From: Escherichia phage ph0011
Strand: one strand, 5' to 3'
Sequence record: OP557969.1
DNA length: 64,000 bases
Below are positions 3,637 through 45,885 of the stretch, piece by piece; within the stretch, counting starts at the first letter, position 1; the number at the start of each line of letters is the position of its first letter. The translations under genes and the position numbers were made by a program. Below the pieces are notes generated by a model, which was given only the letters and a program-made list of their open reading frames with translations, searched no databases and was not told the DNA's origin.

Positions 3637-4241
3637 ACATAGACCAATTAATGAAGTACAGTAAAAGTACAGTTCCAGTACTAAGTAAAGTGTTAGATGC
3701 CTTCACTGCTAAGTACCCTGAAGGTTCAGAGTTAAATATTCCTTTTACTACACCAGGGATTGATGATACTTACATGGTACACATTGGTAGTTCAGGTATT
3801 GTTTTGAAGCAAAAGTACAGTGATAGTGAATATTATGGTTTGAAACTGGATAAAATTTCAGGAGAGAAGACACCTTTTGAGTTTTGGATTCCGAATAGTA
3901 TTGAATCATGGAATACACATATTAATAAGAGAGACGAAGGTAATATTTCTCTTGTAAATTATAAGGAAAAAAGATTTGACGTATTTTATTATTACAGTAC
4001 AGATACGTTTCCAGAAGAGATTTATTTAAATTCAGAGATGTATGAAGATATTGAATCATTTTTCTTTCAGTTATCATTGGTACATGATATCATGCCATTG
4101 CAAGCGTTCAGGGATGAAATAAATTTAGCGAAAGAGATTTCGGATATGTTACCTGAATTTAGTGTTCTTTATGGTAGTAGAGCTTTACCTGAAAATGTGT
4201 ATATAGAATTTATTTCTTGTGTTCAAGGATTGAATATATAA
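3633..4241 (+). CDS. FQ-family paralog
   Basis: ATGA overlap with upstream stop; core motif ESFFFQLSLVHD. Confidence 0.7.
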   Translation: MNIDQLMKYSKSTVPVLSKVLDAFTAKYPEGSELNIPFTTPGIDDTYMVHIGSSGIVLKQKYSDSEYYGLKLDKISGEKTPFEFWIPNSIESWNTHINKRDEGNISLVNYKEKRFDVFYYYSTDTFPEEIYLNSEMYEDIESFFFQLSLVHDIMPLQAFRDEINLAKEISDMLPEFSVLYGSRALPENVYIEFISCVQGLNI

Positions 4242-4242
4242 T

Positions 4243-4437
4243 ATGAACGAAGATGATATCAAAAAAAGGCATACGAAGTTTGAACTGCTCCCTGACGAAA
4301 TCCACATTGATATAGTTAATTTTAACATCAAAGCGTCCTTGCATCCTATATCACAAGATGATTTTGACAACAGAGTGCTTAACATAGTGGTGATTTTGTG
4401 CTATAATCATTTCAGTGAATATTTTAACAAAAGATGA
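4243..4437 (+). CDS. small hypothetical protein
   Basis: ATG ORF 64 aa directly after upstream stop. Confidence 0.45.
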   Translation: MNEDDIKKRHTKFELLPDEIHIDIVNFNIKASLHPISQDDFDNRVLNIVVILCYNHFSEYFNKR

Positions 4438-4444
4438 GGTACAT

Positions 4445-4966
4445 ATGTATCAGCACACGTACAATACATCATATGAGTATGGGTACAGCATTTTGAAGAT
4501 TATCAAAGCGTTAGAGGGTGGATTGCTTAGTCATAAGTACACCAGAGTAGGTGACAATTGGTTCAGAAATGATGATGATGAGTTCAGAAGTCATAAAATC
4601 GTTTACAGTAATAATTACAGTGCTAATTATCTTCAGGATGTGGTTATGTGCTTTGAATACGTGTTACAGTTCAGGGGTTCCATCAGACCAGAGTTAAGAG
4701 AACACATGTACATTCGATACCTACCAATGCTTGAGGATGAGAAATCAATATTCAATTCAGTACACCACAGAGTACGAGATAGAACATTCAGGAATATTTT
4801 GGAAGATGAAGCTGCCTATTTTCAGCGATCATTGATTGATGCTCCTGATGTGTTACAGATGCAGAATTTGTATAATGTATTAGATGCGAACATCGATACT
4901 GATATCTTTTTTTCCTTAAGTGATTATGAAACATGTTTGGAAGATTTAAAGGAAATAGGATTATGA
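4445..4966 (+). CDS. FQ-family paralog
   Basis: In-frame ATG at 4445 after GAGG; core motif EAAYFQRSLIDA. Confidence 0.65.
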   Translation: MYQHTYNTSYEYGYSILKIIKALEGGLLSHKYTRVGDNWFRNDDDEFRSHKIVYSNNYSANYLQDVVMCFEYVLQFRGSIRPELREHMYIRYLPMLEDEKSIFNSVHHRVRDRTFRNILEDEAAYFQRSLIDAPDVLQMQNLYNVLDANIDTDIFFSLSDYETCLEDLKEIGL

Positions 4967-5307
4967 GTGGATTTACAGTATATATAGTAAACGTCAGTAC
5001 AGATGGTAGTTTAATTGAATTTGATGTAGTTGATGACGATGATAATGCATATGGTATTAAGGTGCAAGACAATGTTGTGCAGTTCAGTACAAGAACAAAT
5101 TACGAAAATCCAGTTCCTGTTCCTAATTTCATAGAAGACGAAGCTGTACGATTCCAATACGAAACTGCCTTTGACAATATAGCGATGCATATTATTATGC
5201 AACACAGTTTAGTTCAATTAGTTCCTTTATTTAGACAAAATGTATATGTACATGAATTGTCGATTAATAACGTTCAAAGTTCCGTTTTGTTCGGCACAAA
5301 TATGTAA
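4963..5307 (+). CDS. FQ-family paralog (divergent)
   Basis: ATG at 4963 overlapping upstream TGA (ATGA); motif EAVRFQYETAF. Confidence 0.55.
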   Translation: MSGFTVYIVNVSTDGSLIEFDVVDDDDNAYGIKVQDNVVQFSTRTNYENPVPVPNFIEDEAVRFQYETAFDNIAMHIIMQHSLVQLVPLFRQNVYVHELSINNVQSSVLFGTNM

Positions 5308-5316
5308 GGAAGGATA

Positions 5317-5859
5317 ATGAGTTTATTAGATACCATAGAAAAAGACAGAAGTGCCATTAAGAGATTAAAAAATCTGGTTCTGTGTATTGTGAACAACGTT
5401 GAAAAGTTTGAAGTCCAAGGAAGAATTGGTGATATTTCACATACAGGAATAAAATCCCTGAAGTCAGATTTATTAATTCATAAGGAAGATAAATTATTAT
5501 TTGTATTGAGTTCAGATTTATTGGTTGCAAGTAATGGTTTCAATTCGGTATCAACACAAGATGGTAGTACTGGATTATATCTATCACAGGGTGTACAGAC
5601 GAATGAACATAAGTGTTTTAGTTCAAGAGTACAGAATCCCTTTAAGTTTAATACAGAACAAGCTACAGAGCTTTTTGAGGCTTCAGAAGAGATGTTATTT
5701 CAGTACAAAATGGTCTATACAGATTTTGAAATACGATGCCTATACGCTGTTAAGCATTATGTACAAGAGTTCGAAGATTTAAATTATCTTTTAGTTCGAA
5801 CGAATACGAAGAACATTGACATATTAGAAGATTACATTTCAACAGTTGTTAGTGTGTAA
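5317..5859 (+). CDS. FQ-family paralog
   Basis: ATG after GGAAGGA; core motif SEEMLFQYKMVY. Confidence 0.65.
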   Translation: MSLLDTIEKDRSAIKRLKNLVLCIVNNVEKFEVQGRIGDISHTGIKSLKSDLLIHKEDKLLFVLSSDLLVASNGFNSVSTQDGSTGLYLSQGVQTNEHKCFSSRVQNPFKFNTEQATELFEASEEMLFQYKMVYTDFEIRCLYAVKHYVQEFEDLNYLLVRTNTKNIDILEDYISTVVSV

Positions 5860-6034
5860 TGGGATGTTGCTTATGAAGGAGTTATTTGATGAACAGTTCA
5901 ATGTATTAATGGATAATATTCTTTTTTATAGCCTTGGTAGTAAACGAGGAAATCGTGCTTACAATATAGATTACATATTAACTGTGTTGAGTTCACAGTA
6001 CACATATGCTGTGCAGAGGACATATTATGAATAG
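5846..6034 (+). CDS. small hypothetical protein (start uncertain)
   Basis: ORF track only; track start is TTG, in-frame ATG at 5873; weak. Confidence 0.25.
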   Translation: MLVCNGMLLMKELFDEQFNVLMDNILFYSLGSKRGNRAYNIDYILTVLSSQYTYAVQRTYYE

Positions 6035-6212
6035 TTATAGTGGTGTTGCTAAGGAGAAGTTAAATTGTAGTTTAGATTTTGGCTTAAATGATTTTCTTAC
6101 GTGCACAATGTTCAGGAATGATGATTATGAACAATCCGTAATTTCGTTGTATAGATATTTTGAAATAATTTACACAAGATACCTTAGAAGGTTAGAGGGA
6201 TTGGAATTATGA
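6027..6212 (+). CDS. small hypothetical protein
   Basis: In-frame ATG at 6027 after AGAGGA. Confidence 0.4.
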   Translation: MNSYSGVAKEKLNCSLDFGLNDFLTCTMFRNDDYEQSVISLYRYFEIIYTRYLRRLEGLEL

Positions 6213-6427
6213 TTTATGAACAAAAAGTACCAAGTGGTTATAGTGTTGATGGTTTTGAATTCATGATGGATTTGGTTTTAAAGAATACATTAGTAGTACA
6301 CCGTGCATTACCGGACCATGTAGATAGTGCGGTTCAACGAATAATGAATGTATACGAGATGACGAGTCGAAAGCTTTGTGCAATGAAAAGGATTGAAGAA
6401 ATCAAGCGTTCTAGGATGAATAATTAG
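6209..6427 (+). CDS. small hypothetical protein
   Basis: ATGA overlap with upstream stop; 72 aa. Confidence 0.45.
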   Translation: MIYEQKVPSGYSVDGFEFMMDLVLKNTLVVHRALPDHVDSAVQRIMNVYEMTSRKLCAMKRIEEIKRSRMNN

Positions 6428-6567
6428 AGACGTTTCGTATGATGTATTCAAACGTACAATAAAACAATACTATATAACTTTTTATAATTGATATTTTTTA
6501 AAAAATACACAATCACAACGTGCTCCTTTTATTGGAATTTACCTTATTAATTATAGTTGAGGGGAAG

Positions 6568-6945
6568 ATGGAAATGAAATATAAAGATTTTCATATAGGG
6601 ACATGGATGTACACTGGTGAGTTTATTACGTGCTGTAATTTATACAAGCGTGATTTAAACTACTCAAGGGAGAAGGTTATAAAGTTCGCAGATTCACAAT
6701 TTTATTTTATGGAGTTAAGTACTGGAATTCGTGTTAAATCAACCGTTATGCTGGATTATACAGTTCTGGATGAGGCACAATTATTTCAGGAGTCATTAGT
6801 ATTTGATAAGAAGTACAACTGTACATTAGAAGAGATAGTTGAAATCCAGCGTAGGATCAAATTTATTCACAAGGATTGTATCGATAAATGGTGTAAAACT
6901 GGTGAAACTAATTTTAGTAATTATTTCAATCTAGGGGAAGAGTGA
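6568..6945 (+). CDS. FQ-family paralog (short form)
   Basis: ATG at 6568 after GAGGGGAAG; core DEAQLFQESLVFDKKYNCTLEE. Confidence 0.7.
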   Translation: MEMKYKDFHIGTWMYTGEFITCCNLYKRDLNYSREKVIKFADSQFYFMELSTGIRVKSTVMLDYTVLDEAQLFQESLVFDKKYNCTLEEIVEIQRRIKFIHKDCIDKWCKTGETNFSNYFNLGEE

Positions 6946-7301
6946 TGGAATTTGATTTTGTAATATCAGTACATTCTTTCAAGAATAGTTTTCAGTACTT
7001 TTGTAATTTAAACAAAGGTGATTTAATGCACAGTGCAAATGAGTATATTCATTACACTGCTGGTAAATTTACATTTATTGATTACGATTCATTACAGTAT
7101 CCACATCAGGATATGCCGGACTTTACATTAATGGATGAGGCCGAACTATTCCAAGCTGCATTAGTATTCGATAAGAAGTACTTGTGTACACTAGAAGAAG
7201 TAATTGCCATACAAAATGAAATAAAAGAGTATGCTGCTTTGAATAAATCCAATGTAAGTATTAATCAAGAATACAAATTCAATATAGGAATTACAGAATG
7301 A
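6942..7301 (+). CDS. FQ-family paralog (short form)
   Basis: ATGA overlap; core DEAELFQAALVFDKKYLCTLEE. Confidence 0.7.
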   Translation: MMEFDFVISVHSFKNSFQYFCNLNKGDLMHSANEYIHYTAGKFTFIDYDSLQYPHQDMPDFTLMDEAELFQAALVFDKKYLCTLEEVIAIQNEIKEYAALNKSNVSINQEYKFNIGITE

Positions 7302-7663
7302 CATTTGATTATTCGATATACGTTTGCAAGTCCAGAACGGGGTGGGATTTGTGCTGTAATCTTGTCAAGGGTGACTCGGAACATGAGTTGAGTTTATATA
7401 TTCAGTACTCGGATTTGTGTTTTAATTTTATTGATGTATTGTATGATGACTTCGACTATAACTCTGAAAGTATTACAGATTATACAGTACTGGATGATGC
7501 TGAACTATTTCAAGCTTCTTTGGTGTTTGACAAGAATAAGTACTCATGTACAATAGAAGATATGATTTTTATACAAAATGAAATGAAGAGATATGTCAAA
7601 GAAAACACCTTTGATACATCTACACCAACAACAAGTAATTATTATTTCAATACAGGTGAGTAA
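7298..7663 (+). CDS. FQ-family paralog (short form)
   Basis: ATGA overlap; core DDAELFQASLVFDKNKYSCTIED. Confidence 0.7.
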   Translation: MTFDYSIYVCKSRTGWDLCCNLVKGDSEHELSLYIQYSDLCFNFIDVLYDDFDYNSESITDYTVLDDAELFQASLVFDKNKYSCTIEDMIFIQNEMKRYVKENTFDTSTPTTSNYYFNTGE

Positions 7664-7664
7664 T

Positions 7665-8006
7665 ATGGAATATGATTTTTCTATTTATATGCCTATAATT
7701 AGTTCACAAGATGTGTATTGTAATCTTAATAAAGGTGATTACGAACACAAAATGGATCAGTACATTAAATTTAATGGTGCGTACTTTAGCTTCATTGATT
7801 ATCAGGCCAAAGGATCAGTTGTAGAAAATATGAAAGACTATACAACAGTACATGGTGAGGCTGAAATATTTCAAGAGTCATTAATATTCGACAAGAAGTA
7901 CTTGTGTACTCTAGAGGAAGTAATTGAACTCCAACAGAAGATGAAAGAATATAGAAGAATCTACACAGAGACTGGTTCCAAAGATAGGTATCGTTTTAAG
8001 CTATGA
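7665..8006 (+). CDS. FQ-family paralog (short form)
   Basis: ATG at 7665 directly after upstream TAA; core GEAEIFQESLIFDKKYLCTLEE. Confidence 0.7.
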   Translation: MEYDFSIYMPIISSQDVYCNLNKGDYEHKMDQYIKFNGAYFSFIDYQAKGSVVENMKDYTTVHGEAEIFQESLIFDKKYLCTLEEVIELQQKMKEYRRIYTETGSKDRYRFKL

Positions 8007-8188
8007 ATAAAAAAGAACAAATGGAATCATTCATGAATACAATACTTCGACGATTCGTAATTGATATTAGACATAACAACATTACCAGGAATGACATGTG
8101 CTTCGGTACATATAATATTAGTGAATTGTATATAGCTAATATTCACATGGTGTACCGAGATTATATCCAGACACTACACGGGAGTTGA
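8003..8188 (+). CDS. small hypothetical protein
   Basis: ATGA overlap; 61 aa. Confidence 0.45.
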   Translation: MNKKEQMESFMNTILRRFVIDIRHNNITRNDMCFGTYNISELYIANIHMVYRDYIQTLHGS

Positions 8189-8189
8189 T

Positions 8190-8660
8190 ATGAGTTTTGA
8201 AAGAGCATTAGAAATTGCTAAGTTAATTGATGTATGTAAAAAAGAAATAGTGCTCAACAGACTCAATGGGTATCTATTCAAGGAAGGTAAATCTTATTGC
8301 CGAATGATATACGATGACAGTAGTGAATATATTCACATGTATGAAGAAAATCTTGATGAATCTGAAACAACACTCACTGGGTGTGATGTTAATCTGGAAG
8401 ATAATTACATGTACTTCTGTCGTGATGCTGATATTTTAATACAAGAAACATCATATCAAACTGGGAATCCAGAGGTATATCTTCCATATTCAGTACTGGA
8501 TAATGACTGGGGAAGTGAAGAGTTCTACTTCCAGCAGAATACTATCTACGATGAAGATGTACTTGACAAGCTTGTCATTCTGTGGTACTTTAAGAACACT
8601 GATACTCCTAACTTCTATATAGATTTGGATCTACTAAGAGTTATTAATGAGGATATATGA
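8190..8660 (+). CDS. FQ-family paralog (long form)
   Basis: ATG after GGGAG; N-terminal MSFERALEIAK; core PYSVLDNDWGSEEFYFQQNTIYD...WYFK. Confidence 0.7.
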   Translation: MSFERALEIAKLIDVCKKEIVLNRLNGYLFKEGKSYCRMIYDDSSEYIHMYEENLDESETTLTGCDVNLEDNYMYFCRDADILIQETSYQTGNPEVYLPYSVLDNDWGSEEFYFQQNTIYDEDVLDKLVILWYFKNTDTPNFYIDLDLLRVINEDI

Positions 8661-9097
8661 GTTTAGTAAGTGCACTTGAACTGGCACACAAAATACACAA
8701 CTTCCATGATAAAATAAAAAGTGGGTTTTATGGTGATAACGTAAGTGAATTTGGTAATGAGTATTATCTATCAAGTTCAAATACATACGCTGATGATATT
8801 TTACTTATGGGTCATGATAAAGACAATACTATACAGTACTCTTCATGTAGTCAATATGCTAGTTTTATGGTATATATTCCAGGAACTAAGATTACTTTTG
8901 ACACATCAAATACACCTGTTGACTTCGGGGTACTTGATGGTCCATGGGGTACTGAAGAGTATTACTTCCAACAGAGTCTTATTTTTAGCCAAGAGATGCT
9001 TGATACCTTGGTTGTGTTGTGGTACTTTAAAGAATTGAATTTTGAACCATTCTTTCTTGACTGGGGAGCATGTGAGTATTTAAGTTCAGGAGAATAA
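8657..9097 (+). CDS. FQ-family paralog (long form)
   Basis: ATGA overlap; N-terminal MSLVSALELAHK; core GPWGTEEYYFQQSLIFS...WYFK. Confidence 0.7.
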   Translation: MSLVSALELAHKIHNFHDKIKSGFYGDNVSEFGNEYYLSSSNTYADDILLMGHDKDNTIQYSSCSQYASFMVYIPGTKITFDTSNTPVDFGVLDGPWGTEEYYFQQSLIFSQEMLDTLVVLWYFKELNFEPFFLDWGACEYLSSGE

Positions 9098-9099
9098 TA

Positions 9100-9567
9100 A
9101 TGTCATTGCGAAGTGCATTGAAAGAAGCAAAGAAGATCCATAATTACATGATTATGGTACAAGAAGGTTCCGTGCCTGGTGTATATAAAACATCTGATAC
9201 TGAATTTTTCGTAAAAGATCGAGATGATTATGATGAGTCAGAGATATGTGCAGAAACGTTAGTACTGCACATTGATACGGATGATACTGATGACTGTGAA
9301 TATCAGATGCACAATCAATACCTTAGTTATTATAGGGATGAAGATATTATAATTTACACTCCTGATTACGATGATGATAACATAATCATTCCGTATTCAG
9401 TTCTGGAAGGTCCATGGGATAGTGAAGAATATTATTTCCAGCAAAGTACTGTGTATAATGAAGATGTTTTAGATGTTATTGTAATTATGTGGTACTTTAA
9501 AAGTATTGATTCTGACAGTTTCTATTTCGATTATGAATACGTAGAGAATACTGTAGGGGGAAGATAA
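9100..9567 (+). CDS. FQ-family paralog (long form)
   Basis: ATG after AGGAG; N-terminal MSLRSALKEAKK; core GPWDSEEYYFQQSTVYN...WYFK. Confidence 0.7.
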   Translation: MSLRSALKEAKKIHNYMIMVQEGSVPGVYKTSDTEFFVKDRDDYDESEICAETLVLHIDTDDTDDCEYQMHNQYLSYYRDEDIIIYTPDYDDDNIIIPYSVLEGPWDSEEYYFQQSTVYNEDVLDVIVIMWYFKSIDSDSFYFDYEYVENTVGGR

Positions 9568-10010
9568 TGTCATTACAAAGTGCTCTTGAAAAAGCAAAAG
9601 AACTTCATGCATATATTGAAGATATTAAGGCTGGGAAGTTCGAAGAAATATACAAAGCCGAGAATGGTAACTACTACAAGGATAGTGATTTTGCTACAAC
9701 TACAGTTATTCTTGGGTTGAATTCCAAAAGTCCAGTAGACTTTTCTCAATACAATCCAGATGCAGAATTTATTAGTTATGCTTATGGTGGCGAAATCCGT
9801 TTTTATAATCGCAGCAGACCTTTAAAATTGAACTTTGAAGTACTGAAAGGTCCGTGGGATAGTGAAGAGTACTACTTCCAGAATAGAACTTTGTATGATG
9901 ATGAAGTTCTAGATACTTTAGTTATTATGTGGTACTTTAAAAGTATTGATAGTACAAGATTTTATTTGGATTATGAATATGTACGTGAAGTTTATAAGGG
10001 TAAACGATGA
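9567..10010 (+). CDS. FQ-family paralog (long form)
   Basis: TAATG overlap; N-terminal MSLQSALEKAKE; core GPWDSEEYYFQNRTLYD...WYFK. Confidence 0.7.
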   Translation: MSLQSALEKAKELHAYIEDIKAGKFEEIYKAENGNYYKDSDFATTTVILGLNSKSPVDFSQYNPDAEFISYAYGGEIRFYNRSRPLKLNFEVLKGPWDSEEYYFQNRTLYDDEVLDTLVIMWYFKSIDSTRFYLDYEYVREVYKGKR

Positions 10011-10321
10011 AATTCTTATACAATATTCAGTACATTCCGGGTACAATTAGTTTAATGTATTTCTTCGACCATGATAATTTCCAACATCTTGCAGTTAGGA
10101 GATGTAATGAATCTTTAATGATCGAATATCTTCACGATTGTGATTATCTTCCTGACTTACTTGAATGTGATTACAGAGATGAGCATGAATCATTTCTGTT
10201 TCAGGAATCACTTGTATGGGACAAGAGAATAAATTTTTATGTTTTACTTGAGATACAAAAACAAGTAAAGTACTACTGGGATTACTTAATCACCCAAGAC
10301 TATATAGAGATTGAAATATAA
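10007..10321 (+). CDS. FQ-family paralog (short form)
   Basis: ATGA overlap; core HESFLFQESLVWDKR. Confidence 0.65.
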   Translation: MKFLYNIQYIPGTISLMYFFDHDNFQHLAVRRCNESLMIEYLHDCDYLPDLLECDYRDEHESFLFQESLVWDKRINFYVLLEIQKQVKYYWDYLITQDYIEIEI

Positions 10322-10764
10322 TGTACGAAAGTGATCTTAAGCACGCTGAAGAATTAGTTAATATAGTAAAGTTCTTTCAAAATAATGTAAAGTACTTAGA
10401 CTATAAAGGGGCTTATATTAGTACTATAAGTGTTGGTACAGATATTCTAGGATTAGGCAATGAATATAAGTACGAGTCCCATGATTATGACTTGGAATTC
10501 AAGTACTTCGTATGGGATTCTGGAACTTTCTATTCTATAGATGAAGATGGCAAATATTTTGAATTCACAGAAGAAGAAGTTCTATTCTTAAATTCAGAAG
10601 ATGCTTACTTTCAATATAGTACTATATACCCAAACGCGGCGTTAAGAGCTTTAGTAGTTTTTAATGCATTTCTGAAAGAGAACTTTAACAATTCTATATT
10701 CATTGATTTAGATTATGTATATGAACTAAATCAGGTGATATATATGGAGTCCAGAAAAGAATGA
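10321..10764 (+). CDS. FQ-family paralog
   Basis: TAATG overlap; core SEDAYFQYSTIYP. Confidence 0.65.
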   Translation: MYESDLKHAEELVNIVKFFQNNVKYLDYKGAYISTISVGTDILGLGNEYKYESHDYDLEFKYFVWDSGTFYSIDEDGKYFEFTEEEVLFLNSEDAYFQYSTIYPNAALRALVVFNAFLKENFNNSIFIDLDYVYELNQVIYMESRKE

Positions 10765-11216
10765 GTTATGAAAGTGCACTAAAAAAGGCTAATGATATTC
10801 TACGCGTTGTTCAGTTCTTAAAGGACTATCCTGTTTATGTAGATGATGAACGCAGAGAAGTTTCTAATGGCACGAAGATTACAATTGATTCTTTATTTGA
10901 CACTAGCAGCAACAACTGTAGTACTATTGAATTAGCATACGATTATATTTCATTGAACAGAAAATATGATGAAGTTACGATAGAGCGTCATGAGGATGAA
11001 GAATCTTTTAAAATTTCTGATATTTTATCCCTGAGTACTGAAGAAGGGTACTTCCAGGGAAGTACTCTTTATAATGAAGAAACACTTGACAATCTATGTA
11101 CATTTAGTGTACTATATCAGAAGTCAGTACTGGATATATTTTATCTAGACACTGAAAAACTTGATAGGTTAGTTGATTTCGTTACTATAGAAGAGGCATC
11201 CTTTGAGAAAAATTAA
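10761..11216 (+). CDS. FQ-family paralog
   Basis: ATGA overlap; N-terminal MSYESALKKAND; core TEEGYFQGSTLYN. Confidence 0.65.
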   Translation: MSYESALKKANDILRVVQFLKDYPVYVDDERREVSNGTKITIDSLFDTSSNNCSTIELAYDYISLNRKYDEVTIERHEDEESFKISDILSLSTEEGYFQGSTLYNEETLDNLCTFSVLYQKSVLDIFYLDTEKLDRLVDFVTIEEASFEKN

Positions 11217-11739
11217 CATTAATGATTATGATGCATTACAAGATTTATCAAAAAAGATTCGCACTATCGTACCAGTACTGAAGAAATGCAGTACTGGATT
11301 AATCGATCCTAGTACAGTTATTAGTGAGAAGTACAATTTTCATAAACTGTTACAAGGGAATGGTGCATTCCAGAAGTGTGAGATACGTGAGACACACGTA
11401 ATTGATACATCATTGTTTTCTATTGGTGCACCTGTGTCGAATAATACTATTTTCCTAGACAACGCTGGAAATATTCAACAATTAACATTTAAGAAAAGGA
11501 AAAAGAACAATAACATTGGTGTGTATGCGATGAAGTGGGGTCAACCTGATTTGAAGCGTGAAATTCACATCCCTAAGTACAATTACAATGCATTTGACGA
11601 ACAGTGTTTTCAACTATCGTGTACTGACCCTGACTATGCTATCATTCAGTTCTATATGGAATTGCAGATTGCATTTAACAGTAATTTGTATATTAACTTA
11701 TTGGCGATGAACATCGATGAAGTATTCAAAAACATTTAA
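11203..11739 (+). CDS. FQ-family paralog (divergent), probable TTG start
   Basis: No in-frame ATG near 5' end; TTG at 11203 after GAAGAGG; motif FDEQCFQLSCTDP. Confidence 0.5.
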   Translation: MRKININDYDALQDLSKKIRTIVPVLKKCSTGLIDPSTVISEKYNFHKLLQGNGAFQKCEIRETHVIDTSLFSIGAPVSNNTIFLDNAGNIQQLTFKKRKKNNNIGVYAMKWGQPDLKREIHIPKYNYNAFDEQCFQLSCTDPDYAIIQFYMELQIAFNSNLYINLLAMNIDEVFKNI

Positions 11740-11935
11740 TCGAATTGAATACATGAGAACTGTGAGTGCAGTGTGGGACATATGGTTCACTACTAAACCA
11801 AAAATGGATTACCATGACTTTAAGCTATTGTTCTTCGTTGGCTCTAACAAACAGGATGTTGCAATGAAGGGTTATATTCAGCACTTACAGGAACTAATCC
11901 AGAAGAGAATATATGAAAATAATAGACCAAGATGA
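11717..11935 (+). CDS. small hypothetical protein, family B
   Basis: ATG ORF; motif DFKLLFFVGSNKQ; overlaps upstream gene by 23 nt, start uncertain. Confidence 0.45.
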   Translation: MKYSKTFNRIEYMRTVSAVWDIWFTTKPKMDYHDFKLLFFVGSNKQDVAMKGYIQHLQELIQKRIYENNRPR

Positions 11936-12104
11936 TATTGCTAAACTATTCAATATATATTCTTCTAAAATGATGCAAATCGACTCATATAGTACTGAAT
12001 TCAAAGAATTAAAAGTACTGATGTATTTGGGTACACAACATCAGGAACAAGTTGTTAAAGAATATATTGATTCATTACAGAAGGATATACGTTATGTACA
12101 ATGA
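11913..12104 (+). CDS. small hypothetical protein, family B
   Basis: ATG ORF; motif LKVLMYLGTQHQEQVV. Confidence 0.5.
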   Translation: MKIIDQDDIAKLFNIYSSKMMQIDSYSTEFKELKVLMYLGTQHQEQVVKEYIDSLQKDIRYVQ

Positions 12105-12648
12105 GCTTGACTTAGCATTTGAACGTGTAAAAATCTTCATTGAAACTTATCTTATGCACAAAACTATATTGAAAACAAAAGGAATATGGTTCACTGATAA
12201 ATTTCTTACTATGGCTAAGAGAGATGGAATGGAACATCTTTACTGTACAGATAGTGCCAGAATTTCAGTACTGAATTATGATGAAAGTGTATCATCTGGT
12301 ACTAGTTTAATTTCGACATATAATGATAATATTACTAGTATTATGTATACTAAAAATTGTTCAAATGTTTCTGTATATAAAAACTGTGATAGTTCATTAT
12401 CGTACAATATCGATCAGTACTTTTATCCTAATACAGAAGAAAACATCTTTCAAAATAGTCTTATATTGGATGATACATCTAATAAATGTATATATCTTTA
12501 TAATAAATTAAAAGAGTACATTGATAACAGTTCAATTAGAACTAATACATTCAGTGTTTCTGTTTTAAATTATAATAAGGAAGATGTGTTTTATTATACA
12601 GAAATTGAAAGAATACATACAATGTATAAGGAACTACTATGTTATTAA
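12094..12648 (+). CDS. FQ-family paralog
   Basis: In-frame ATG at 12094 after GAAGGA; core TEENIFQNSLILD. Confidence 0.6.
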   Translation: MYNELDLAFERVKIFIETYLMHKTILKTKGIWFTDKFLTMAKRDGMEHLYCTDSARISVLNYDESVSSGTSLISTYNDNITSIMYTKNCSNVSVYKNCDSSLSYNIDQYFYPNTEENIFQNSLILDDTSNKCIYLYNKLKEYIDNSSIRTNTFSVSVLNYNKEDVFYYTEIERIHTMYKELLCY

Positions 12649-13241
12649 ATGCAAATAAATGTTGTAGTGCTGATGTTCATGTATATTTTAAGAAATTAGT
12701 CAATGATATCATCTATATGCAAGAAATCATTTATCACAAAAGAATGGACTTAGAAAAAGCATTAGCTCAGTTCTCTTTTAATCTAGATGGTGATATATCT
12801 TTAGATGGTGATGGGTTACGTATAACATTAGACAGCAATTCCAATAGAGTTTTCTTTTGGATAGATAATAAATTATGTTCCTCAATTTGTCGCACTTTTT
12901 ATAACCCTATTTCGGACTTGTATCAATTGGTTTATTCGAAAGGTGCGGTTGAAGCATCATATGGTGATAGTTTTGCACTAGGGAAGTCCATTCCATATAT
13001 GCAAACATTTGATATTGAATTAGTCAGTACTGATGAAGATGTAATGTTCACAAATGATCTAACGATGCAGCGTGAATCTGCAATGAGATATATAACAAAT
13101 TCAATGCATACCTTCTTTAAAATAGCAGAATTTGATAATGTATATATATCAAATGTAAATATTTTCACTGACTTGTGTCAGTTTTTGAGAAATATTTTTG
13201 ATTTTGATGAAAGATATTCTAAGTTTTATACTGAGGTTTAA
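12639..13241 (+). CDS. hypothetical protein (possibly a divergent FQ-family member)
   Basis: ATG ORF 200 aa; only a weak motif-like segment DEDVMFTNDL. Confidence 0.55.
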   Translation: MLLNANKCCSADVHVYFKKLVNDIIYMQEIIYHKRMDLEKALAQFSFNLDGDISLDGDGLRITLDSNSNRVFFWIDNKLCSSICRTFYNPISDLYQLVYSKGAVEASYGDSFALGKSIPYMQTFDIELVSTDEDVMFTNDLTMQRESAMRYITNSMHTFFKIAEFDNVYISNVNIFTDLCQFLRNIFDFDERYSKFYTEV

Positions 13242-13246
13242 ATCAA

Positions 13247-13606
13247 ATGAATACCATTAGTATTACGTACTACACAACTAAAAAATACGTTTGTTGTTTA
13301 CTTTCTTTGAAGACTAATGATGATATGTTCAATAATGTGGCATATACATTAGAATTGTCAGAAGATGGTTTTCAATGTCATGAAGCATACTCAAATACAC
13401 GTGAAGATACAATTGATACTACGCTCATGCAAGAGGATGAATTATTTCAAGAAAGTTTAGTATGGGATAAAAAGTACTATTGTGATTTTGATTTTCTATG
13501 TTTAATCCAGAAAGAAATGAAAAGGATCTTCGACAATTATCCAGTGAAGAGATTAAGTTCTGGACCAGAGCAGTACAGGAGGATGATATTCCGATATGAA
13601 GACTAG
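13247..13606 (+). CDS. FQ-family paralog (short form)
   Basis: ATG after GAGG; core QEDELFQESLVWDKKYYCD. Confidence 0.7.
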   Translation: MNTISITYYTTKKYVCCLLSLKTNDDMFNNVAYTLELSEDGFQCHEAYSNTREDTIDTTLMQEDELFQESLVWDKKYYCDFDFLCLIQKEMKRIFDNYPVKRLSSGPEQYRRMIFRYED

Positions 13607-13931
13607 ATTAGTAAAAGTAATGTATGCTACACATATTAAACTACTTCTTGTGAAATTTGATTATAATAAAAAACACAATGAGTTTTATACTTTAATTCGT
13701 AATGAAGAATCATTTTCATTGAGATGTAATAATATACCAATGAAAATAAACGATTACACCACATTAGATGAGGGAGAACTATTCCAAGAATCATTAGTTA
13801 TTGATAGTAATATAAAAATAGATATAGAAATTATTAAGCAGTACCAGACGTTATTAAACAAAATTATGAATTGTTATCCCTGTAGAATAGAAGGTAATAT
13901 GCAATTTAAATCGAAAATGTACGAGTTGTGA
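13596..13931 (+). CDS. FQ-family paralog (short form)
   Basis: ATG ORF; core DEGELFQESLVID. Confidence 0.65.
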   Translation: MKTRLVKVMYATHIKLLLVKFDYNKKHNEFYTLIRNEESFSLRCNNIPMKINDYTTLDEGELFQESLVIDSNIKIDIEIIKQYQTLLNKIMNCYPCRIEGNMQFKSKMYEL

Positions 13932-13938
13932 GGTTTTT

Positions 13939-14475
13939 ATGTTAGATAAAATAATCAATACTGGAACACCATACAACCATCTTAAGTTGGATACATTTGA
14001 GTCAGCATTAAGTACTGCCCAAGATATAATTGATATTATTAAGTACATTAAAGAAAATAAGATAAAATGTTTAAAAAAGATAAATCATTCAATGTACAAA
14101 GATGACGACATTCATGTATCAGTTCTAAAGCCAAAAGATAAAGTAAATGGGAGAGATTTTTATAATAATAGTGGACAGTATGAATGCGAATATGACCCAG
14201 AATTTCGTGGCGGGTTCATGTGCTACAGTAAAAATGACACATCACATATTGAGATACGTACAATAAACGGTGGTATAACTAGATTGGAGTTCATTGATAT
14301 AGTTTTAAATCAGGAAAATTACTTCCAACAAACATTAATTTATCCTTCTTATTATGTAGGAGTACTATTCATGTACAAGTACTTCTATGTGCACTTAAAT
14401 GAAGATTTCTATATAGACTTAGAAGATTACCAATTAGTATGGGAAGAAATGATAGAACTTCGCAATAACACTTGA
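13939..14475 (+). CDS. FQ-family paralog
   Basis: ATG after GAGG; core NQENYFQQTLIYP. Confidence 0.65.
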   Translation: MLDKIINTGTPYNHLKLDTFESALSTAQDIIDIIKYIKENKIKCLKKINHSMYKDDDIHVSVLKPKDKVNGRDFYNNSGQYECEYDPEFRGGFMCYSKNDTSHIEIRTINGGITRLEFIDIVLNQENYFQQTLIYPSYYVGVLFMYKYFYVHLNEDFYIDLEDYQLVWEEMIELRNNT

Positions 14476-14501
14476 CCCCCACCAAATCTTTGTGATATAA
14501 T
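14472..14501 (+). promoter_or_regulatory. sigma70-like early promoter with extended -10 (TGTGATATAAT)
   Basis: TTGACC-N18-TATAAT with TG two bases upstream of the -10; intergenic. Confidence 0.5.
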
Positions 14502-14534
14502 CTCTTTAAATTAATTGTAAAGGGTTATATCGCA

Positions 14535-15008
14535 ATGTCACCAGACCTCAATTTCGATAATGCACAAAAAATCGCACAATATATCATTAAACTTCATAAG
14601 TTTCTCATAACAGTTAAAGAGGATATAATTCTACCCAAAGGTAAACTTTATGTGGGCAAAAATTATTTGTCATATCGTGGAAATTTATTGTATACTACAG
14701 ATGAAAATTTCTGTGGTATTCGTGTAATTGACGATGTACCAACAGGAAACTTTATCTCATATTGTTTCCGTACATCTAGTCGTTTTAAGTACTATCATCC
14801 TAGATATGATGATGAACATGACACATTTGATGTTAGGACAGAAGAAGATTTTTTCCAGAACAGTACTTTACACGATGAGAGAATTGTGTTGAGTTCTACA
14901 ATTTTTACAGTTCTTAAAGATGAACTCAACGACGCAAATGATAGATTCTATATGGATTTAAACTTCGTAGATGAAATTATGGAGTACATGGAGACGAATG
15001 GTTTATGA
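14535..15008 (+). CDS. FQ-family paralog
   Basis: ATG after AAGGG; core TEEDFFQNSTLHD. Confidence 0.7.
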   Translation: MSPDLNFDNAQKIAQYIIKLHKFLITVKEDIILPKGKLYVGKNYLSYRGNLLYTTDENFCGIRVIDDVPTGNFISYCFRTSSRFKYYHPRYDDEHDTFDVRTEEDFFQNSTLHDERIVLSSTIFTVLKDELNDANDRFYMDLNFVDEIMEYMETNGL

Positions 15009-28310: not shown

Positions 28311-29159
28311 ATGAAACTTTATCTAATCGTTGACTACAGTAAGGGTTATTATGACTACGCAGAAGAATCTGAAGGGTATTGCTCGTCTACTAATGTCAAT
28401 GTACGCACCAGTAGTACACATGAGCATGAATCTATTACAAATCTAAAAGATTTTATTGCATATCGAGCATTTGAAAAGAATTTCTGTCGTAGTAGATATT
28501 CGAAGTTTGAGTACCCGTTAATTGATGTTCCTGATGAATTGATGTTCCAGTTAATGCTCACTGGAGTACAAGATTATGATTACATTGCGTACAATCACAT
28601 TACTAAGAAAATTTATATCGGTACGTCAACGCATGACATTTCTATGTATGCATCATGCCCCGATGATCGAATGAATGATAGAAAATCATACTATAGTGGT
28701 TCAGTTGGTTCAAATGTTCCATCAAATAAAAATTTATTCTTTGAGTACGAGTTTGATAATCATCGAGGGAAAACAGACCGAGAAGATTATTGTACTGAAA
28801 TTAATAGTTCAAATGGATATGAAGAAGTGAAAGAAGCAATAATGCCATATATCCTAGACAAGTACTACAAAGATTTTCAGTACTGTAGTAATTTTCTAAT
28901 CCGAAATTCTATCAAAATCGGTCGTCAAAGCACTGCATTCTCTAAGTACTACAATGATTCCCCTGTTGCTGAAAATGAATACTGTAATGTTCTCTCAATC
29001 CCACGTGAAGATATGGTATTCATGTTCACATCTTTCATTGAAGATGATGAGTTGTATGTAAAAAACAAGCACAGGTTCATGCTAAGTAATATTGAGGTTA
29101 TGAGAAGCTTAAGTGCAGATATATTAACGAATTTCACTGAAAAAACAGAATACAACTGA
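28311..29159 (+). CDS. FQ-family-related protein (atypical, long C-terminal extension)
   Basis: ATG after GGAG; motif PDELMFQLMLTG near residue 75 of 282. Confidence 0.6.
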   Translation: MKLYLIVDYSKGYYDYAEESEGYCSSTNVNVRTSSTHEHESITNLKDFIAYRAFEKNFCRSRYSKFEYPLIDVPDELMFQLMLTGVQDYDYIAYNHITKKIYIGTSTHDISMYASCPDDRMNDRKSYYSGSVGSNVPSNKNLFFEYEFDNHRGKTDREDYCTEINSSNGYEEVKEAIMPYILDKYYKDFQYCSNFLIRNSIKIGRQSTAFSKYYNDSPVAENEYCNVLSIPREDMVFMFTSFIEDDELYVKNKHRFMLSNIEVMRSLSADILTNFTEKTEYN

Positions 29160-29189
29160 GACATACCATAAGTTTATGATATAATATAA

Positions 29190-29220
29190 GGTGACAGCAG
29201 AATATGTTGTCACCTTTTTT
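29190..29220 (+). terminator. rho-independent terminator
   Basis: GGTGACA-11 nt loop-TGTCACC hairpin followed by TTTTTT, 30 nt after the stop at 29159. Confidence 0.6.
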
Positions 29221-29762
29221 AATCCTGAAAGGTTCCTTTAAAGGAAACGTTTAAAACCTAATCCACTCGAAAATGTAGAGGGTAGATGAGTAGTCCTTTC
29301 AGTACGAACAGCAGATGAAACCCGTTAGATGATGGCATAGTTTGAACCACTCACGGCAATGCGGCTGTATAAAGAACTCCAATAGGATAAAGAGAGTTCC
29401 TCGATAGACATATAAGGATCGCACCTTACCAATTATCTAAGGGAGATTTCATGAGAAATATGCGGTCGGAATTATACAATATAGTTGCGTCCAAATTTTG
29501 TGAAATCAAATACAAGTACTGGTCATATGGTATTTGTATTATGTGTTGGGATGTTTAAGACCAACGACCGTTGCTACAAGAACCGCGATAGAGAGAAACC
29601 GAGCAACCCGCTTTCGTCTCGTATGAGAATTCGTGATATGAACTATGTGAAGACCACCAGCGTCAAATTTTTTTGTTCTTTCCCCTGCGGGGGGATGAAA
29701 TATGCTCAAACAAACCTCGTCAATATTAATTAAAAGAATTATTATTACTTGTAGAATTTGAC
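29221..29762 (+). other. ORF-free island of about 540 bp; candidate structured non-coding RNA or regulatory region
   Basis: No convincing ORF on either strand in an otherwise densely coding genome; appears locally G+C-richer by eye with several short inverted repeats (e.g. CCCCTGCGGGG at about 29682-29692). Confidence 0.3.
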
Positions 29763-30386
29763 ATGCGTAGCATGGATAATTCTACTGGTGTTGATGTAAT
29801 CAACATCACGTATATATTCATTGAAGTTTCCACAGGAATAATGATGGCATTTATTAAAAAACAAAAAACATTTACCTATAAGACTTTGGATTTTATTGAT
29901 TGCGAAAATCAAACACAGAATGAAGATAACTTTACTGGATTTGTTGTTATTAAAGAAAAAGGATGTATTTCGTATATCAAGGAATTACAAAATGGAATTG
30001 AAGTAACGTCGGTTAAATTACTTCCTACACAAAAGCCAACAATATCCAAAGCACAATATGGTAATTATTTTGAGGAAAGATATAGTAATAATTTAATAAG
30101 TGTTAAGGCTCATATTATAAAAGGAGAACTAGAAGGAGAATATAGAAAATTCAATCCACAAGGAAAATGTGTTTGGGTTAAATACTTCAATTCAGGAAAT
30201 GATGTAACATCTGAAATAATTGAGTTTTTAGGTTTAACATGTACCCCTGAAACTCTTCATGACTACAAATTTAATGCTGAAGAAGAGTTTAATCTGATGA
30301 TGCGTTATGGAACACATTTTAAATTTTTATATGAATATAACATTGACAGTGGTGTTTTTGATAGGATAGTACAAAACTGTCTTTAA
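29763..30386 (+). CDS. hypothetical protein with MORN/YwqK-like repeat segment (start uncertain)
   Basis: ATG ORF; segment GEYRKFNPQGKCVWVKYFNSG resembles MORN-type repeats; alternative ATG further downstream. Confidence 0.45.
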   Translation: MRSMDNSTGVDVINITYIFIEVSTGIMMAFIKKQKTFTYKTLDFIDCENQTQNEDNFTGFVVIKEKGCISYIKELQNGIEVTSVKLLPTQKPTISKAQYGNYFEERYSNNLISVKAHIIKGELEGEYRKFNPQGKCVWVKYFNSGNDVTSEIIEFLGLTCTPETLHDYKFNAEEEFNLMMRYGTHFKFLYEYNIDSGVFDRIVQNCL

Positions 30387-30402: not shown

Positions 30403-30927
30403 ATGTCGAAGAAGGATACTTCGAAGAAAAAGCAATCAGTACATTTCAGTACTGGAAAAGATAACTGGACAACTCCAAAGGATTTCTTTGAAGAGTTGGA
30501 TGAGTTATGGGGATTCACACTTGATGCTGCTTGTGTTGATGAGACGGCATTATGTGAAAATTATTTTACACCAAATGACGATTCTCTATCACAGGATTGG
30601 GGAAAGAATATAGTTTGGTTAAACCCGCCATATAGTGATTTGAAAACATGGTTATCTAAAGCAGTAGATGCGTATAATAAAGGAGCAACAGTCGTAATTC
30701 TAGTTCCATCACGAACTGATACAATAGCCTTCCATGAATATGCTGCAAAAGTTTGTGATTGTATTTGTTTCATTAAAGGAAGATTACGATTTGGTATCCC
30801 AGAAGAACCAGAGAAGAAGACAGATTCAGCACCATTTCCTTCATGTCTTATAGTTCTTGATAATTACTTAACTACTGCTAAAATAAATTATCTTAAATCT
30901 ATTGGGTTGGTAATGAAGAAACTATGA
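30403..30927 (+). CDS. dam: DNA N6-adenine methyltransferase, phage Dam family
   Basis: ATG after AAGGA; motifs WTTPKDFFEEL and catalytic NPPY (VWLNPPYS) typical of phage N6-adenine methyltransferases. Confidence 0.88.
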   Translation: MSKKDTSKKKQSVHFSTGKDNWTTPKDFFEELDELWGFTLDAACVDETALCENYFTPNDDSLSQDWGKNIVWLNPPYSDLKTWLSKAVDAYNKGATVVILVPSRTDTIAFHEYAAKVCDCICFIKGRLRFGIPEEPEKKTDSAPFPSCLIVLDNYLTTAKINYLKSIGLVMKKL

Positions 30928-31457
30928 AAGAAACATGTATTTTATCATTTATGAGATGTAACCCTGTACATAATGGACATGGTTTAGTTTTTGAAAAGGC
31001 CAAAACATTACAAGAACAGTACAATGCTGATTTGAAAATATATCTAAGTACCAGTACTGACAATATAAAAAACCAACTCCCACCTGAACTAAAAATGTAT
31101 TATACAGAGGGATTTTATCCTTCAGTACAAGAGAACATCTACACCGAAGACAATCTATTTGATATAATGAGAGAACTGGATGGAAAATACTTAGATGTAT
31201 TTTTCATATGTGGTTCAGACCGTATTGAATCTTTTCAGAAAACTCTTGACAGTTACAATGGGAAATTATATAATTTTTGTAATATAAAAGCAATTCAAGC
31301 AGGTATTGATCGCCAATCAAGTCAATATAGTTCAACACAAATGCGTAACTTCGCAAAAAATGAAGATTTTGATAATTTTCGAGAATTTTTACCAGGTAAT
31401 GATGAGGACTTAAAAATTCAATTATTTGAAGATGTTATCAAATACATGAGGAAATAA
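30924..31457 (+). CDS. HxGH-motif nucleotidyltransferase (NMN/NaMN adenylyltransferase-like)
   Basis: ATGA overlap with dam; N-terminal CNPVHNGHG (HxGH) and C-terminal SSTQMRN (ISSTxxR-like) motifs. Confidence 0.7.
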   Translation: MKETCILSFMRCNPVHNGHGLVFEKAKTLQEQYNADLKIYLSTSTDNIKNQLPPELKMYYTEGFYPSVQENIYTEDNLFDIMRELDGKYLDVFFICGSDRIESFQKTLDSYNGKLYNFCNIKAIQAGIDRQSSQYSSTQMRNFAKNEDFDNFREFLPGNDEDLKIQLFEDVIKYMRK

Positions 31458-45552: not shown

Positions 45553-45885
45553 ATGAAACATCTTGTACAATATAATCAGTACTTGATTTCATTACACAAA
45601 ATGAAAGATGATTTCTTTAGAAGTGCTGAGATTGAACTCGTTGGTAAGATAGTAAAATTTACTGACGAGTATATCAAAAGATACACTGACATAGATGATG
45701 ACCCAGAGTATGAATCATACTACCAGTACATAAATCAATATACTAGAATGCGAATTGTTGGAATTTTAAAATTCGGTATACGATTAGTTGCACATGTGGA
45801 ATTCATCAATTACGAAGCAATTGATGCAGCAGCCTTTGGGGATGAAATTAGTTTAGATCATCTTATACTAGTTGATGAGGAATAA
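45553..45885 (+). CDS. hypothetical protein
   Basis: ATG ORF 110 aa. Confidence 0.55.
   Translation: MKHLVQYNQYLISLHKMKDDFFRSAEIELVGKIVKFTDEYIKRYTDIDDDPEYESYYQYINQYTRMRIVGILKFGIRLVAHVEFINYEAIDAAAFGDEISLDHLILVDEE

Follow-up and report, generated by a model that had tools for sequence, protein, structure and literature searches.

A candidate family of large, pseudoknot-rich structured RNAs in Rak2-like jumbo phages and bacterial islands

A noncoding stretch in a jumbo-phage genome

Within 64,000 nucleotides of DNA from Escherichia phage ph0011 (sequence record OP557969.1), which we refer to in its entirety as the window, a stretch of 681 bp (positions 29160-29840) lies between the stop codon of a gene for a 282-amino-acid (aa) protein and the corrected start codon of the next gene. 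In this report, we provide comparative evidence that this gap very probably contains a structured RNA gene belonging to a new family, one that is absent from Rfam and from the literature searched. The source is an Asteriusvirus-type jumbo phage that shares 95-96% identity with 121Q and PBECO4, two phages of E. coli.

A preliminary description of this locus had called it an island free of open reading frames (ORFs), and had considered a structured noncoding RNA, a degraded gene, or a mobile-element scar as possible explanations. The lack of ORFs stands, in that the longest ORF on either strand of 29160-29762 has 82 aa. The proposed right edge at 29762 does not, as it came from an over-long ORF call, and the gap reaches 29840. 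The impression of locally raised G+C content was borne out, with 0.375-0.43 in 200-nt windows across 29200-29700 versus 0.265-0.33 on the flanks (0.378 versus 0.330 when the gap is taken as a whole).

A conserved RNA structure supported by covariation

The same gap, with a length of 690-740 bp, is present at the same syntenic place in all 11 other Rak2-like jumbo phages that were fetched (121Q, fHe-Yen9-04, BF, Munch, GAP32, CBB, Kaldavass, XbC2, Hallingskeid, EJP2, and RaK2). The order in each is a gene for a protein of ~270 aa with its terminator, the gap, a gene for a protein of ~175 aa, a Dam methylase gene, and a cytidylyltransferase gene. Nucleotide identity in distant genera is 70-75% over ~480 nt, and the region is mostly unannotated in sequence records.

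When column pairs in an alignment of 68 distinct copies (alignment A1) were ranked by mutual information with average product correction, Watson-Crick pairs came out on top. From these covariation data, we assembled 18 helices comprising 84 base pairs. The core fold thus contains 18 helices or more, among which are three long-range or loop pseudoknots and one H-type core pseudoknot (Table 1). The short inverted repeats mentioned in the preliminary description are real, and match conserved helices. In the alignment, invariant blocks are separated by hairpins whose two arms change together, and the ~50 invariant nucleotides are mostly unpaired.

Several controls support this structure. For the 68 copies and 84 pairs, 93.3% of cells are paired, compared with 36-45% after sliding the 3' partners by 1-3 columns, and the covariation score is 0.498 versus 0.06-0.10 for slid partners. 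Changes on both sides of the pair occur in 65 of the 84 pairs, and 1036 cells are compensatory versus 308 +/- 16 in shuffled alignments. None of 500 shuffles reaches any of the observed measures, and all three pseudoknots are supported. In a hold-out set of 20 copies that were found later (69-88% identical to the nearest training copy), 95.4% of cells are paired, versus 39-46% with shifted partners. Covariation across related phages had been named in advance as a check on the locus; it revealed a conserved structure, and no ORF is conserved among the copies. Helix cells contain 349 G-U and 122 A-C combinations, and this excess of G-U over A-C indicates an RNA on the + strand.

One further helix was considered and rejected. 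This was a closing helix between GAUGAG (29285-90) and CUCGUC (29716-21), in which variants GUUGAG, CUUCA, and CGACA do not compensate.

Table 1. Features of the RNA locus and its surroundings. Positions are those of the window.
Feature	Position	Strand	Evidence or remarks
Conserved RNA core, ~470 nt	29256..29725	+	covariation, profile match
H1	29260-68/29278-83	+	covariation
H2	29290-92/29303-05	+	covariation
H3, long-range helix	29308-12/29364-68	+	covariation
H4	29322-25/29353-56	+	covariation
PKa, 3-bp pseudoknot	29359-61/29409-11	+	covariation
H5	29374-79/29394-99	+	covariation
PKb, H5-loop pseudoknot	29386-89/29434-37	+	4/4 pairs covary
H6	29413-17/29424-28	+	covariation
H7	29445-49/29503-07	+	covariation
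H8	29509-19/29530-40	+	11/11 pairs covary
PKc, H8-loop pseudoknot, partner 110 nt downstream	29522-27/29637-42	+	6/6 pairs covary
H9	29545-49/29561-65	+	covariation
H11, interleaved with H11b to form H-type pseudoknot	29570-74/29603-07	+	covariation
H11b, interleaved with H11	29591-95/29611-15	+	covariation
H10	29584-87/29632-35	+	covariation
H12	29617-20/29625-28	+	covariation
H13, tentative	29579-83/29675-79	+	one covarying pair, 29581:29675
H14	29682-85/29690-93	+	covariation
Near-invariant core pseudoknot, GACCGUUGC ... GAUAGnGAGAAACnGnGCAACCCGCUUnC ... AAUUCG	29566..29636	+	pattern scans, invariant columns; served as search signature
Optional peripheral module, ~45-nt hairpin enclosed by H7, ..GTACAAT..GTTGCGTCCAAAWTTTG	29450..29502	+	alignment A1 columns ~575-630, ~767-800
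Box 1, CCACCAGCGTCAA, direct repeat	29654..29666	+	identity covariation with box 2
Box 2, CAAACCTCGTCAA, direct repeat	29711..29723	+	identity covariation with box 1
Sigma-70-type promoter of RNA	29156..29185	+	-35-like CTGAGACA 29156-63, 16-nt spacer, extended -10 TGATATAAT 29177-85
Intrinsic terminator of upstream gene	29188..29220	+	about 12-bp hairpin, 29188-98 with 29206-16, T-run to 29220
5' leader, small variable hairpin ~29233-36/29243-46	29221..29255	+	in jumbo-phage copies, absent from island copies
3' extension, hairpin 1: GUAGAAUU-UGA-CAUG-C(GUA)G-CAUG-GAU-AAUUCUAC	29752-87	+	consensus/hairpin scan
3' extension, hairpin 2: GGUGUUGAU-GUA-AUCAACAUC, terminator-like	29786-29808	+	consensus/hairpin scan
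Upstream protein gene, 282 aa, PHROG 15199, function unknown	28311..29159	+	ORF, PHROG match, syntenic orthologues
Downstream protein gene, PHROG 16210, function unknown	29841..30386	+	corrected start ATG 29841 or 29844, ribosome-binding site AGGA 29834-37
Spurious TTG ORF, 82 aa, not a gene	29485..29733	+	stops in 66/68 homologous copies; intact only in window and 121Q

Copies in jumbo phages

To extend the family, the core signature GACCGTTG..GATA....GAAAC.G..CAACCCGC was scanned against IMG/VR. All matches are either on jumbo-phage contigs of ~345-380 kb or on shorter viral contigs (flanks were examined for locus L017 only), with several matches per genome. A second pattern and an nhmmer profile yielded 128 matches, corresponding to 85 distinct full-length copies.

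Phage 121Q carries four copies, at ~90.3, 193.0 (the orthologue of the copy in the window), 247.8, and 326.9 kb. GAP32, fHe-Yen9-04, and CBB also have four copies each at similar relative positions, and BLAST detects up to five places per genome. Paralogues are 65-70% identical to one another. The window has exactly one copy (29221-29725, E 2.6e-118), which is the sole nhmmer match in the 64 kb. A candidate second copy at 45566-45602 on the - strand (38 nt, 84% identical to 29495-29532) lies inside a coding sequence and was judged to be a chance match.

Clustering of 1037 ORFs flanking the copies revealed no protein family that is shared across paralogue groups. Similarly, we found no association with tRNAs; the only loci with a tRNA are of the XaC1 type, where it lies 2-3 kb away.

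The most divergent member found is on metagenome contig OERT01000393.1 (locus L088), where the RNA at 7340-7649 matches profile positions 131-496 only and keeps the core. This contig is phage-like, has ~41% G+C, and encodes a Thg1-like tRNA-His guanylyltransferase. Its context indicates that the RNA family reaches beyond the classified Rak2-like genera.

Copies in bacterial islands

A relaxed signature detected the RNA in seven bacterial assemblies and 53 metagenome contigs. The assemblies are those of Enterobacter chinensis, Silvania, Serratia, Buttiauxella, two Enterobacteriaceae, and one 2.8-kb contig binned as Clostridium, and the flanks of these seven loci are not phage-like. Small chromosomal islands of Enterobacterales carry the RNA as a single copy, adjacent to the integrase. 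In E. chinensis, the RNA is flanked by genes for a large serine recombinase and a CI/S24-type repressor, and in strain RIT714 it follows a tyrosine integrase, beside chromosomal genes. In E. coli LR-29-1, it is situated in a 1.4-kb gap without annotation, within an island that has inserted next to ffs and also carries DUF4326, DUF488, and dual-OB genes. Such a copy, unannotated, is present in only two of 5426 complete E. coli genomes.

The same island type occurs on a 232-kb metagenomic contig (L056), together with the Kiwa defence genes KwaA and KwaB (3733-14625). Components seen in such islands are a serine or tyrosine recombinase, a CI/S24 repressor, and a resolvase (L056 3733-14625, L105 4959-15303, L051, and L048). 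A recurrent module that consists of the RNA, a convergent repressor, a 90-aa ORF, and a 286-aa ORF is found in 11 island loci. One particular paralogue of XaC1-like jumbo phages is the nearest match (83%) to the island copies, a degree of identity that suggests horizontal exchange between islands and jumbo phages.

Transcription signals and ends of the RNA

The preliminary description had pointed out a promoter-like element at 29177-29185 and a terminator at the start of the gap. A consensus scan recovered both, namely TGATATAAT with a -35-like GAGACA 16 nt upstream, and the hairpin at 29188-29216, which is followed by a T-run. Transcription is predicted to start at ~29191-29194. Of 89 distinct copies, 73 have TGnTAnAAT in the 200 nt preceding H1, versus 21 of 151 control stretches, and the remaining copies have a near-variant -10 (TGTGCTATACT or TGTCCTATAAT). 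A promoter is therefore conserved at nearly every copy, which, along with the compensatory changes and the hold-out validation, upholds the structured noncoding RNA among the explanations considered initially. Many copies have a -35 of the form CTGAAAC(A/G). This corresponds to the 'divergent RpoD-like' promoter with TGAAACG that is reported for phages CBB and GAP32 (PMC5259590). The RNA's own transcription signals, that is, the promoter and the 3' terminator-like hairpin, are consensus matches only.

The promoter and the upstream terminator are intertwined. The stop codon of the upstream gene (TGA, 29157-59) is inside the -35 region, the promoter is located between this stop codon and the terminator of the same gene, and the predicted start of the RNA falls within the 5' arm of that terminator. 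The order of -10, hairpin, and T-run is conserved across the whole syntenic group (including L002-L008). This terminator hairpin may also serve the RNA itself, as a 5' hairpin or an attenuator. In island copies, the -10 is only 20-30 nt from H1, whereas jumbo-phage copies have an extra leader of 40-110 nt. The position of the island -10 places the start of the minimal RNA near 29256 of the window.

Past the 3' end of the core, one to three hairpins capped by C(GNA)G are present in most copies, with GAACGnAGUGA as a frequent loop motif. Within 200 nt 3' of the core, such hairpins occur at 0.66 per copy in 91 distinct copies, versus 0.02 in shuffles. Two hairpins of this kind are present in the window (29752-87 and 29786-29808), and the second, which is terminator-like, is the probable 3' end of the RNA. 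The predicted transcript would extend from ~29192 to ~29815, and the unit measured from the start near 29192 to the end of the hairpin at 29808 is ~620 nt.

Flanking protein-coding genes

The 3' extension overlaps the start that was originally called for the downstream gene. This annotated start (ATGCGTAGCATG, 29763) falls within the C(GUA)G-capped hairpin. Alignment shows that orthologues of the 207-aa ORF begin at approximately residue 35, and the profile of PHROG 16210 aligns from residue 18; overall, orthologues and PHROG 16210 point to a start some 27-35 residues into the ORF. We therefore place the start at ATG 29841 or 29844 rather than at 29763; translation probably skips the first 26 codons (~78 nt) of the longer call. 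Gene 416 of 121Q has the same N-terminal over-extension.

No Pfam domains were found in the proteins flanking the RNA. Farther downstream, the gene at 30924-31457 is orthologous to 121Q gene 418 (L001 5769-6302), which is annotated as 'ribonucleotide reductase A (NrdB)'. In every other phage record, the orthologue is labelled a cytidylyltransferase or nucleotidyltransferase, and the 121Q annotation is probably wrong.

A movable module and direct-repeat boxes

The hairpin module enclosed by H7 in the window (also written ..GTACAAT..CGTCCAAAATTTG) varies in location. Depending on the paralogue, it is present at H7, in the loop of H12, at both sites, or at neither; the second copy of 121Q (L035) has it at both H7 and the H12 loop. 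Based on this pattern in the alignment, the module appears to behave like a movable peripheral domain.

Boxes 1 and 2 (consensus AYC(A)nCGUCAR) exhibit an uncommon form of dependence. In 85 copies, they covary by identity, not by complementarity. Positions 29657 and 29715 read TT in 57 copies and CC in the other 28, with zero exceptions, and positions 29666 and 29723 are AA in 40 and GG in 40. In the outliers RaK2, L049, and L088, both CGUCA boxes are altered alike. Both variants coexist in one genome. A search for a Watson-Crick partner common to the two boxes found none.

The distance between the boxes is 47-109 nt, with residues modulo 3 distributed as 32/33/18. Readings in which the repeats serve rolling-circle or template functions were rejected, given the out-of-frame spacing and the absence of a reverse transcriptase. 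The RNA was likewise rejected as a reverse-transcriptase template RNA of the retron or DRT2-like kind, given that there is no shared neighbouring protein and that the box spacing is not kept in frame. The boxes may point to a conformational switch or to a pair of equivalent quaternary contacts in a homo-oligomer.

Points against a structured RNA and its proposed function

Several considerations weigh against our interpretation of the locus. The folding energy of the single sequence is unremarkable (z = -0.85 for the + strand and 0.07 for the - strand), as is often the case for RNAs with pseudoknots. In an automated test, H13, which lies in a U-rich region, performed no better than shuffles, and the fold of the 3' tail is, like H13, tentative. 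The structure was first scored on the alignment from which it was derived, a circularity that the slid controls and the hold-out set mitigate, and the shuffle control does not model phylogeny. Covariation gives the same signal for RNA and for structured single-stranded DNA, and for intramolecular and intermolecular pairs. In the syntenic group, a promoter that is followed immediately by a terminator hairpin and T-run should attenuate transcription of the RNA itself. No transcript evidence for any member and no RNA-seq data on Rak2-like phages were found in the literature searched. The long noncoding RNAs of phage PA5oct, to which we return below, are not homologous in the regions compared, those of ncRNA001, 002, and 004 (nhmmer --max gives E>4). 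Finally, the functional part of our explanation, presented next, draws on context and analogy only.

Possible roles

Two properties of the family guide hypotheses on its function. First, the ~50 invariant, largely unpaired nucleotides and the pseudoknots argue for a precise three-dimensional core, such as that of a catalyst, a binder of a ligand or protein, or a self-assembling particle; features this exacting would be superfluous in a simple antisense regulator. Second, the lack of a constant protein neighbour and the presence of the RNA in unrelated mobile elements suggest that it acts by itself or together with host factors, which has also been proposed for ROOL and GOLLD, two RNAs that have no protein partner.

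In the mechanism that we propose, the RNA would be a stand-alone gene on the + strand that is read by host RNA polymerase from its own promoter, and the upstream terminator would insulate it from the preceding operon. The RNA would then act in trans as a compactly folded molecule that is either independent of proteins or dependent on host factors. By analogy with the ROOL and GOLLD RNAs, PKb and PKc could be intermolecular contacts that build a homo-oligomer. Occurrence in both lytic jumbo phages and defence-type islands leads us to favour a role in phage-host conflict, as a decoy, scaffold, or catalyst, over a housekeeping role. As a whole, this trans-acting, self-assembling, conflict-related mechanism, which is argued from analogy, must be seen as tentative. 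It is also possible, though we would not call it likely, that the RNAs constitute a new class of ribozyme or self-assembling particle, with phage paralogues that have specialised for conflict and that islands have captured as a decoy or counter-measure.

A different hypothesis is that the RNA is a cis-acting leader, such as a giant 5' untranslated region, attenuator, riboswitch-like sensor, or processive antiterminator, for the gene at 29841 and the Dam methylase and cytidylyltransferase genes. In the window, the RNA and the next gene have no strong terminator between them, all genes here are on the same strand, and the order of promoter, terminator, and RNA could serve as an attenuator. However, paralogues precede unrelated genes, and no protein family is common to their loci. 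In 11 island loci, moreover, the next gene is the convergent CI-like repressor, which leaves nothing downstream to regulate. In other genera, the hairpins are followed by a fresh TTGTATAAT promoter for the next gene, and a consensus scan finds a promoter-like TTGATG-16-TATATT ahead of the downstream gene in the window. We therefore consider regulation in cis to be unlikely.

It is also improbable that the copies are replication origins, at which they would provide a structured primer or R-loop RNA (compare ColE1 RNA II and T4 oriF/oriG) or a single-stranded DNA structure. Four to five copies spaced ~80-140 kb apart in genomes of ~350 kb are what such origins might look like, and covariation alone is compatible with single-stranded DNA. 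These phages are reported to have T4-like replisomes, and the TGAAAC-type -35 that many copies possess is linked to DNA-synthesis genes in CBB (PMC5259590). On the other hand, known origin transcripts need no multi-pseudoknot fold with ~50 invariant unpaired bases. The region has no AT-rich unwinding element, is richer in G+C than its flanks, and shows no inflection in cumulative GC skew. Furthermore, the genes next to island copies are for integrases and repressors rather than for replication.

If the stretch were a self-splicing intron, some other mobile RNA, or the scar left by such an element (the preliminary description had considered a mobile-element scar), this would account for the multiple copies per genome, the optional hairpin module at different sites, the direct-repeat boxes that flank the 3' hairpin, and the homologues in unrelated mobile elements. 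Yet no gene is interrupted: a stop codon and a terminator close the upstream ORF, and the downstream ORF begins with a ribosome-binding site and start codon of its own. Rfam models of group I and group II introns give no match even at E<=10, and no homing endonuclease or reverse transcriptase is encoded nearby. Orthologous copies occupy fixed syntenic sites across genera, unlike a recent insertion, and paralogues are as diverged as reported above; these two facts indicate that the duplications are ancient and do not reflect recent transposition. We thus regard mobile-element explanations as highly unlikely.

That the stretch is a degraded gene or encodes a small protein is close to untenable: although the stretch does have ORFs of 35 aa (29451-29558) and 82 aa (29485-29733), and the invariant UAAGGGAG resembles a Shine-Dalgarno sequence 5 nt before ATG 29451 (29438-29453), internal stops are present in 66 of 68 copies (in keeping with the doubt initially expressed about the TTG ORF), lengths break the frame in 42 of 68, there is no three-base or codon periodicity, and conservation tracks helices rather than codons. 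121Q has ATA in place of ATG 29451, and the ATG is absent elsewhere; because this ATG is not conserved, UAAGGGAG is better explained as a feature of the RNA than as part of a translation start.

Comparison with known structured RNAs

Large RNAs with complex conserved folds are rare. Examples are rRNA, RNase P RNA, group I and II introns, OLE, GOLLD, ROOL, HEARO, and raiA, each of which opened new biology. For the RNA described here, the four to five diverged paralogues per genome and the capture by defence islands point to a role in phage-host conflict that protein-centred annotation has missed. In nearly all of 70 deposited genomes, the corresponding 0.7-kb stretches are blank or filled with spurious small ORFs. 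A multi-pseudoknot fold that covaries this well is also a target for cryo-electron microscopy and a benchmark for RNA structure prediction.

Scans for known RNA families and tRNAs, which had been proposed from the outset, produced no assignment. Rfam 15 (4227 families) has no match, either at gathering thresholds on the whole window or at E<=10 on 29100-29850. For 23 other members, searches at gathering thresholds on 15 and at E<=5 on 8 yielded only spurious matches. ARAGORN predicted no tRNA or transfer-messenger RNA (tmRNA). In the literature searched on Rak2-like phages, jumbo-phage noncoding RNAs, and large phage RNAs, no description of this RNA was found. A large screen of IMG/VR for structured RNAs reports motifs of only 29-151 nt (PMC10690425).

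In general character, the RNA resembles RNase P RNA, group I introns, and tmRNA, with which it shares a similar size, long-range pseudoknots, and many invariant unpaired junction nucleotides. It differs from them in that it matches none of their models, has another order of conserved blocks, interrupts no gene, and occurs as diverged multi-copy paralogues. Identity with RNase P RNA, tmRNA, or tRNA was rejected for lack of a match to Rfam or ARAGORN models.

Phage PA5oct is a distant relative of the Rak2-like phages, and expresses four RNAs (ncRNA001-004) that were defined by RNA-seq, are ORF-free and promoter-driven, and measure 236-619 nt. Two of them reach up to 5% of phage reads (PMC7318152), and no conserved structure is reported for them. 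The invariant core motifs of our RNA are absent from the regions of ncRNA001, 002, and 004. The highly expressed PA5oct RNAs at L044 16952-17402 and L208 1617-2235 show no detectable similarity to our family. ncRNA004 does end in a similar C-run/G-run hairpin (TTCCTTCCCAAACGGGGAGGAAA), a resemblance that is not significant (nhmmer E 6.3).

The closest parallels are GOLLD and ROOL. Like the RNA described here, GOLLD is large, comes from phages or prophages, forms a transcription unit of its own, and has pseudoknots predicted by covariation. One such predicted pseudoknot was later shown to be an intermolecular bridge, and GOLLD expression rises during phage lysis (PMC12286853). Our RNA does not match GOLLD in Rfam, is ~470-620 nt rather than >800 nt, and has another architecture, multiple copies, and no link to tRNAs.

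ROOL is likewise a phage or prophage RNA (500-700 nt) with a very complex multi-pseudoknot fold, no dedicated protein partner, and a function that is unknown. Its covarying loop-to-junction contacts are real, are in part intermolecular, and build a nanocage (PMC12286853). The RNA family in this report differs from ROOL in lacking a match to the Rfam model, in having Enterobacterales hosts rather than Firmicutes or rumen organisms, in lacking an association with tRNA islands, and in having four to five diverged paralogues per genome. The two also differ in how they can be studied, as do this RNA and GOLLD. GOLLD and ROOL come mostly from metagenomes. In contrast, our RNA is found in cultivable phages of E. 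coli, Klebsiella, Salmonella, and Erwinia, which phage-therapy work already makes use of. With such phages and a genetically tractable host, the function of this RNA should be directly testable, unlike that of GOLLD or ROOL.

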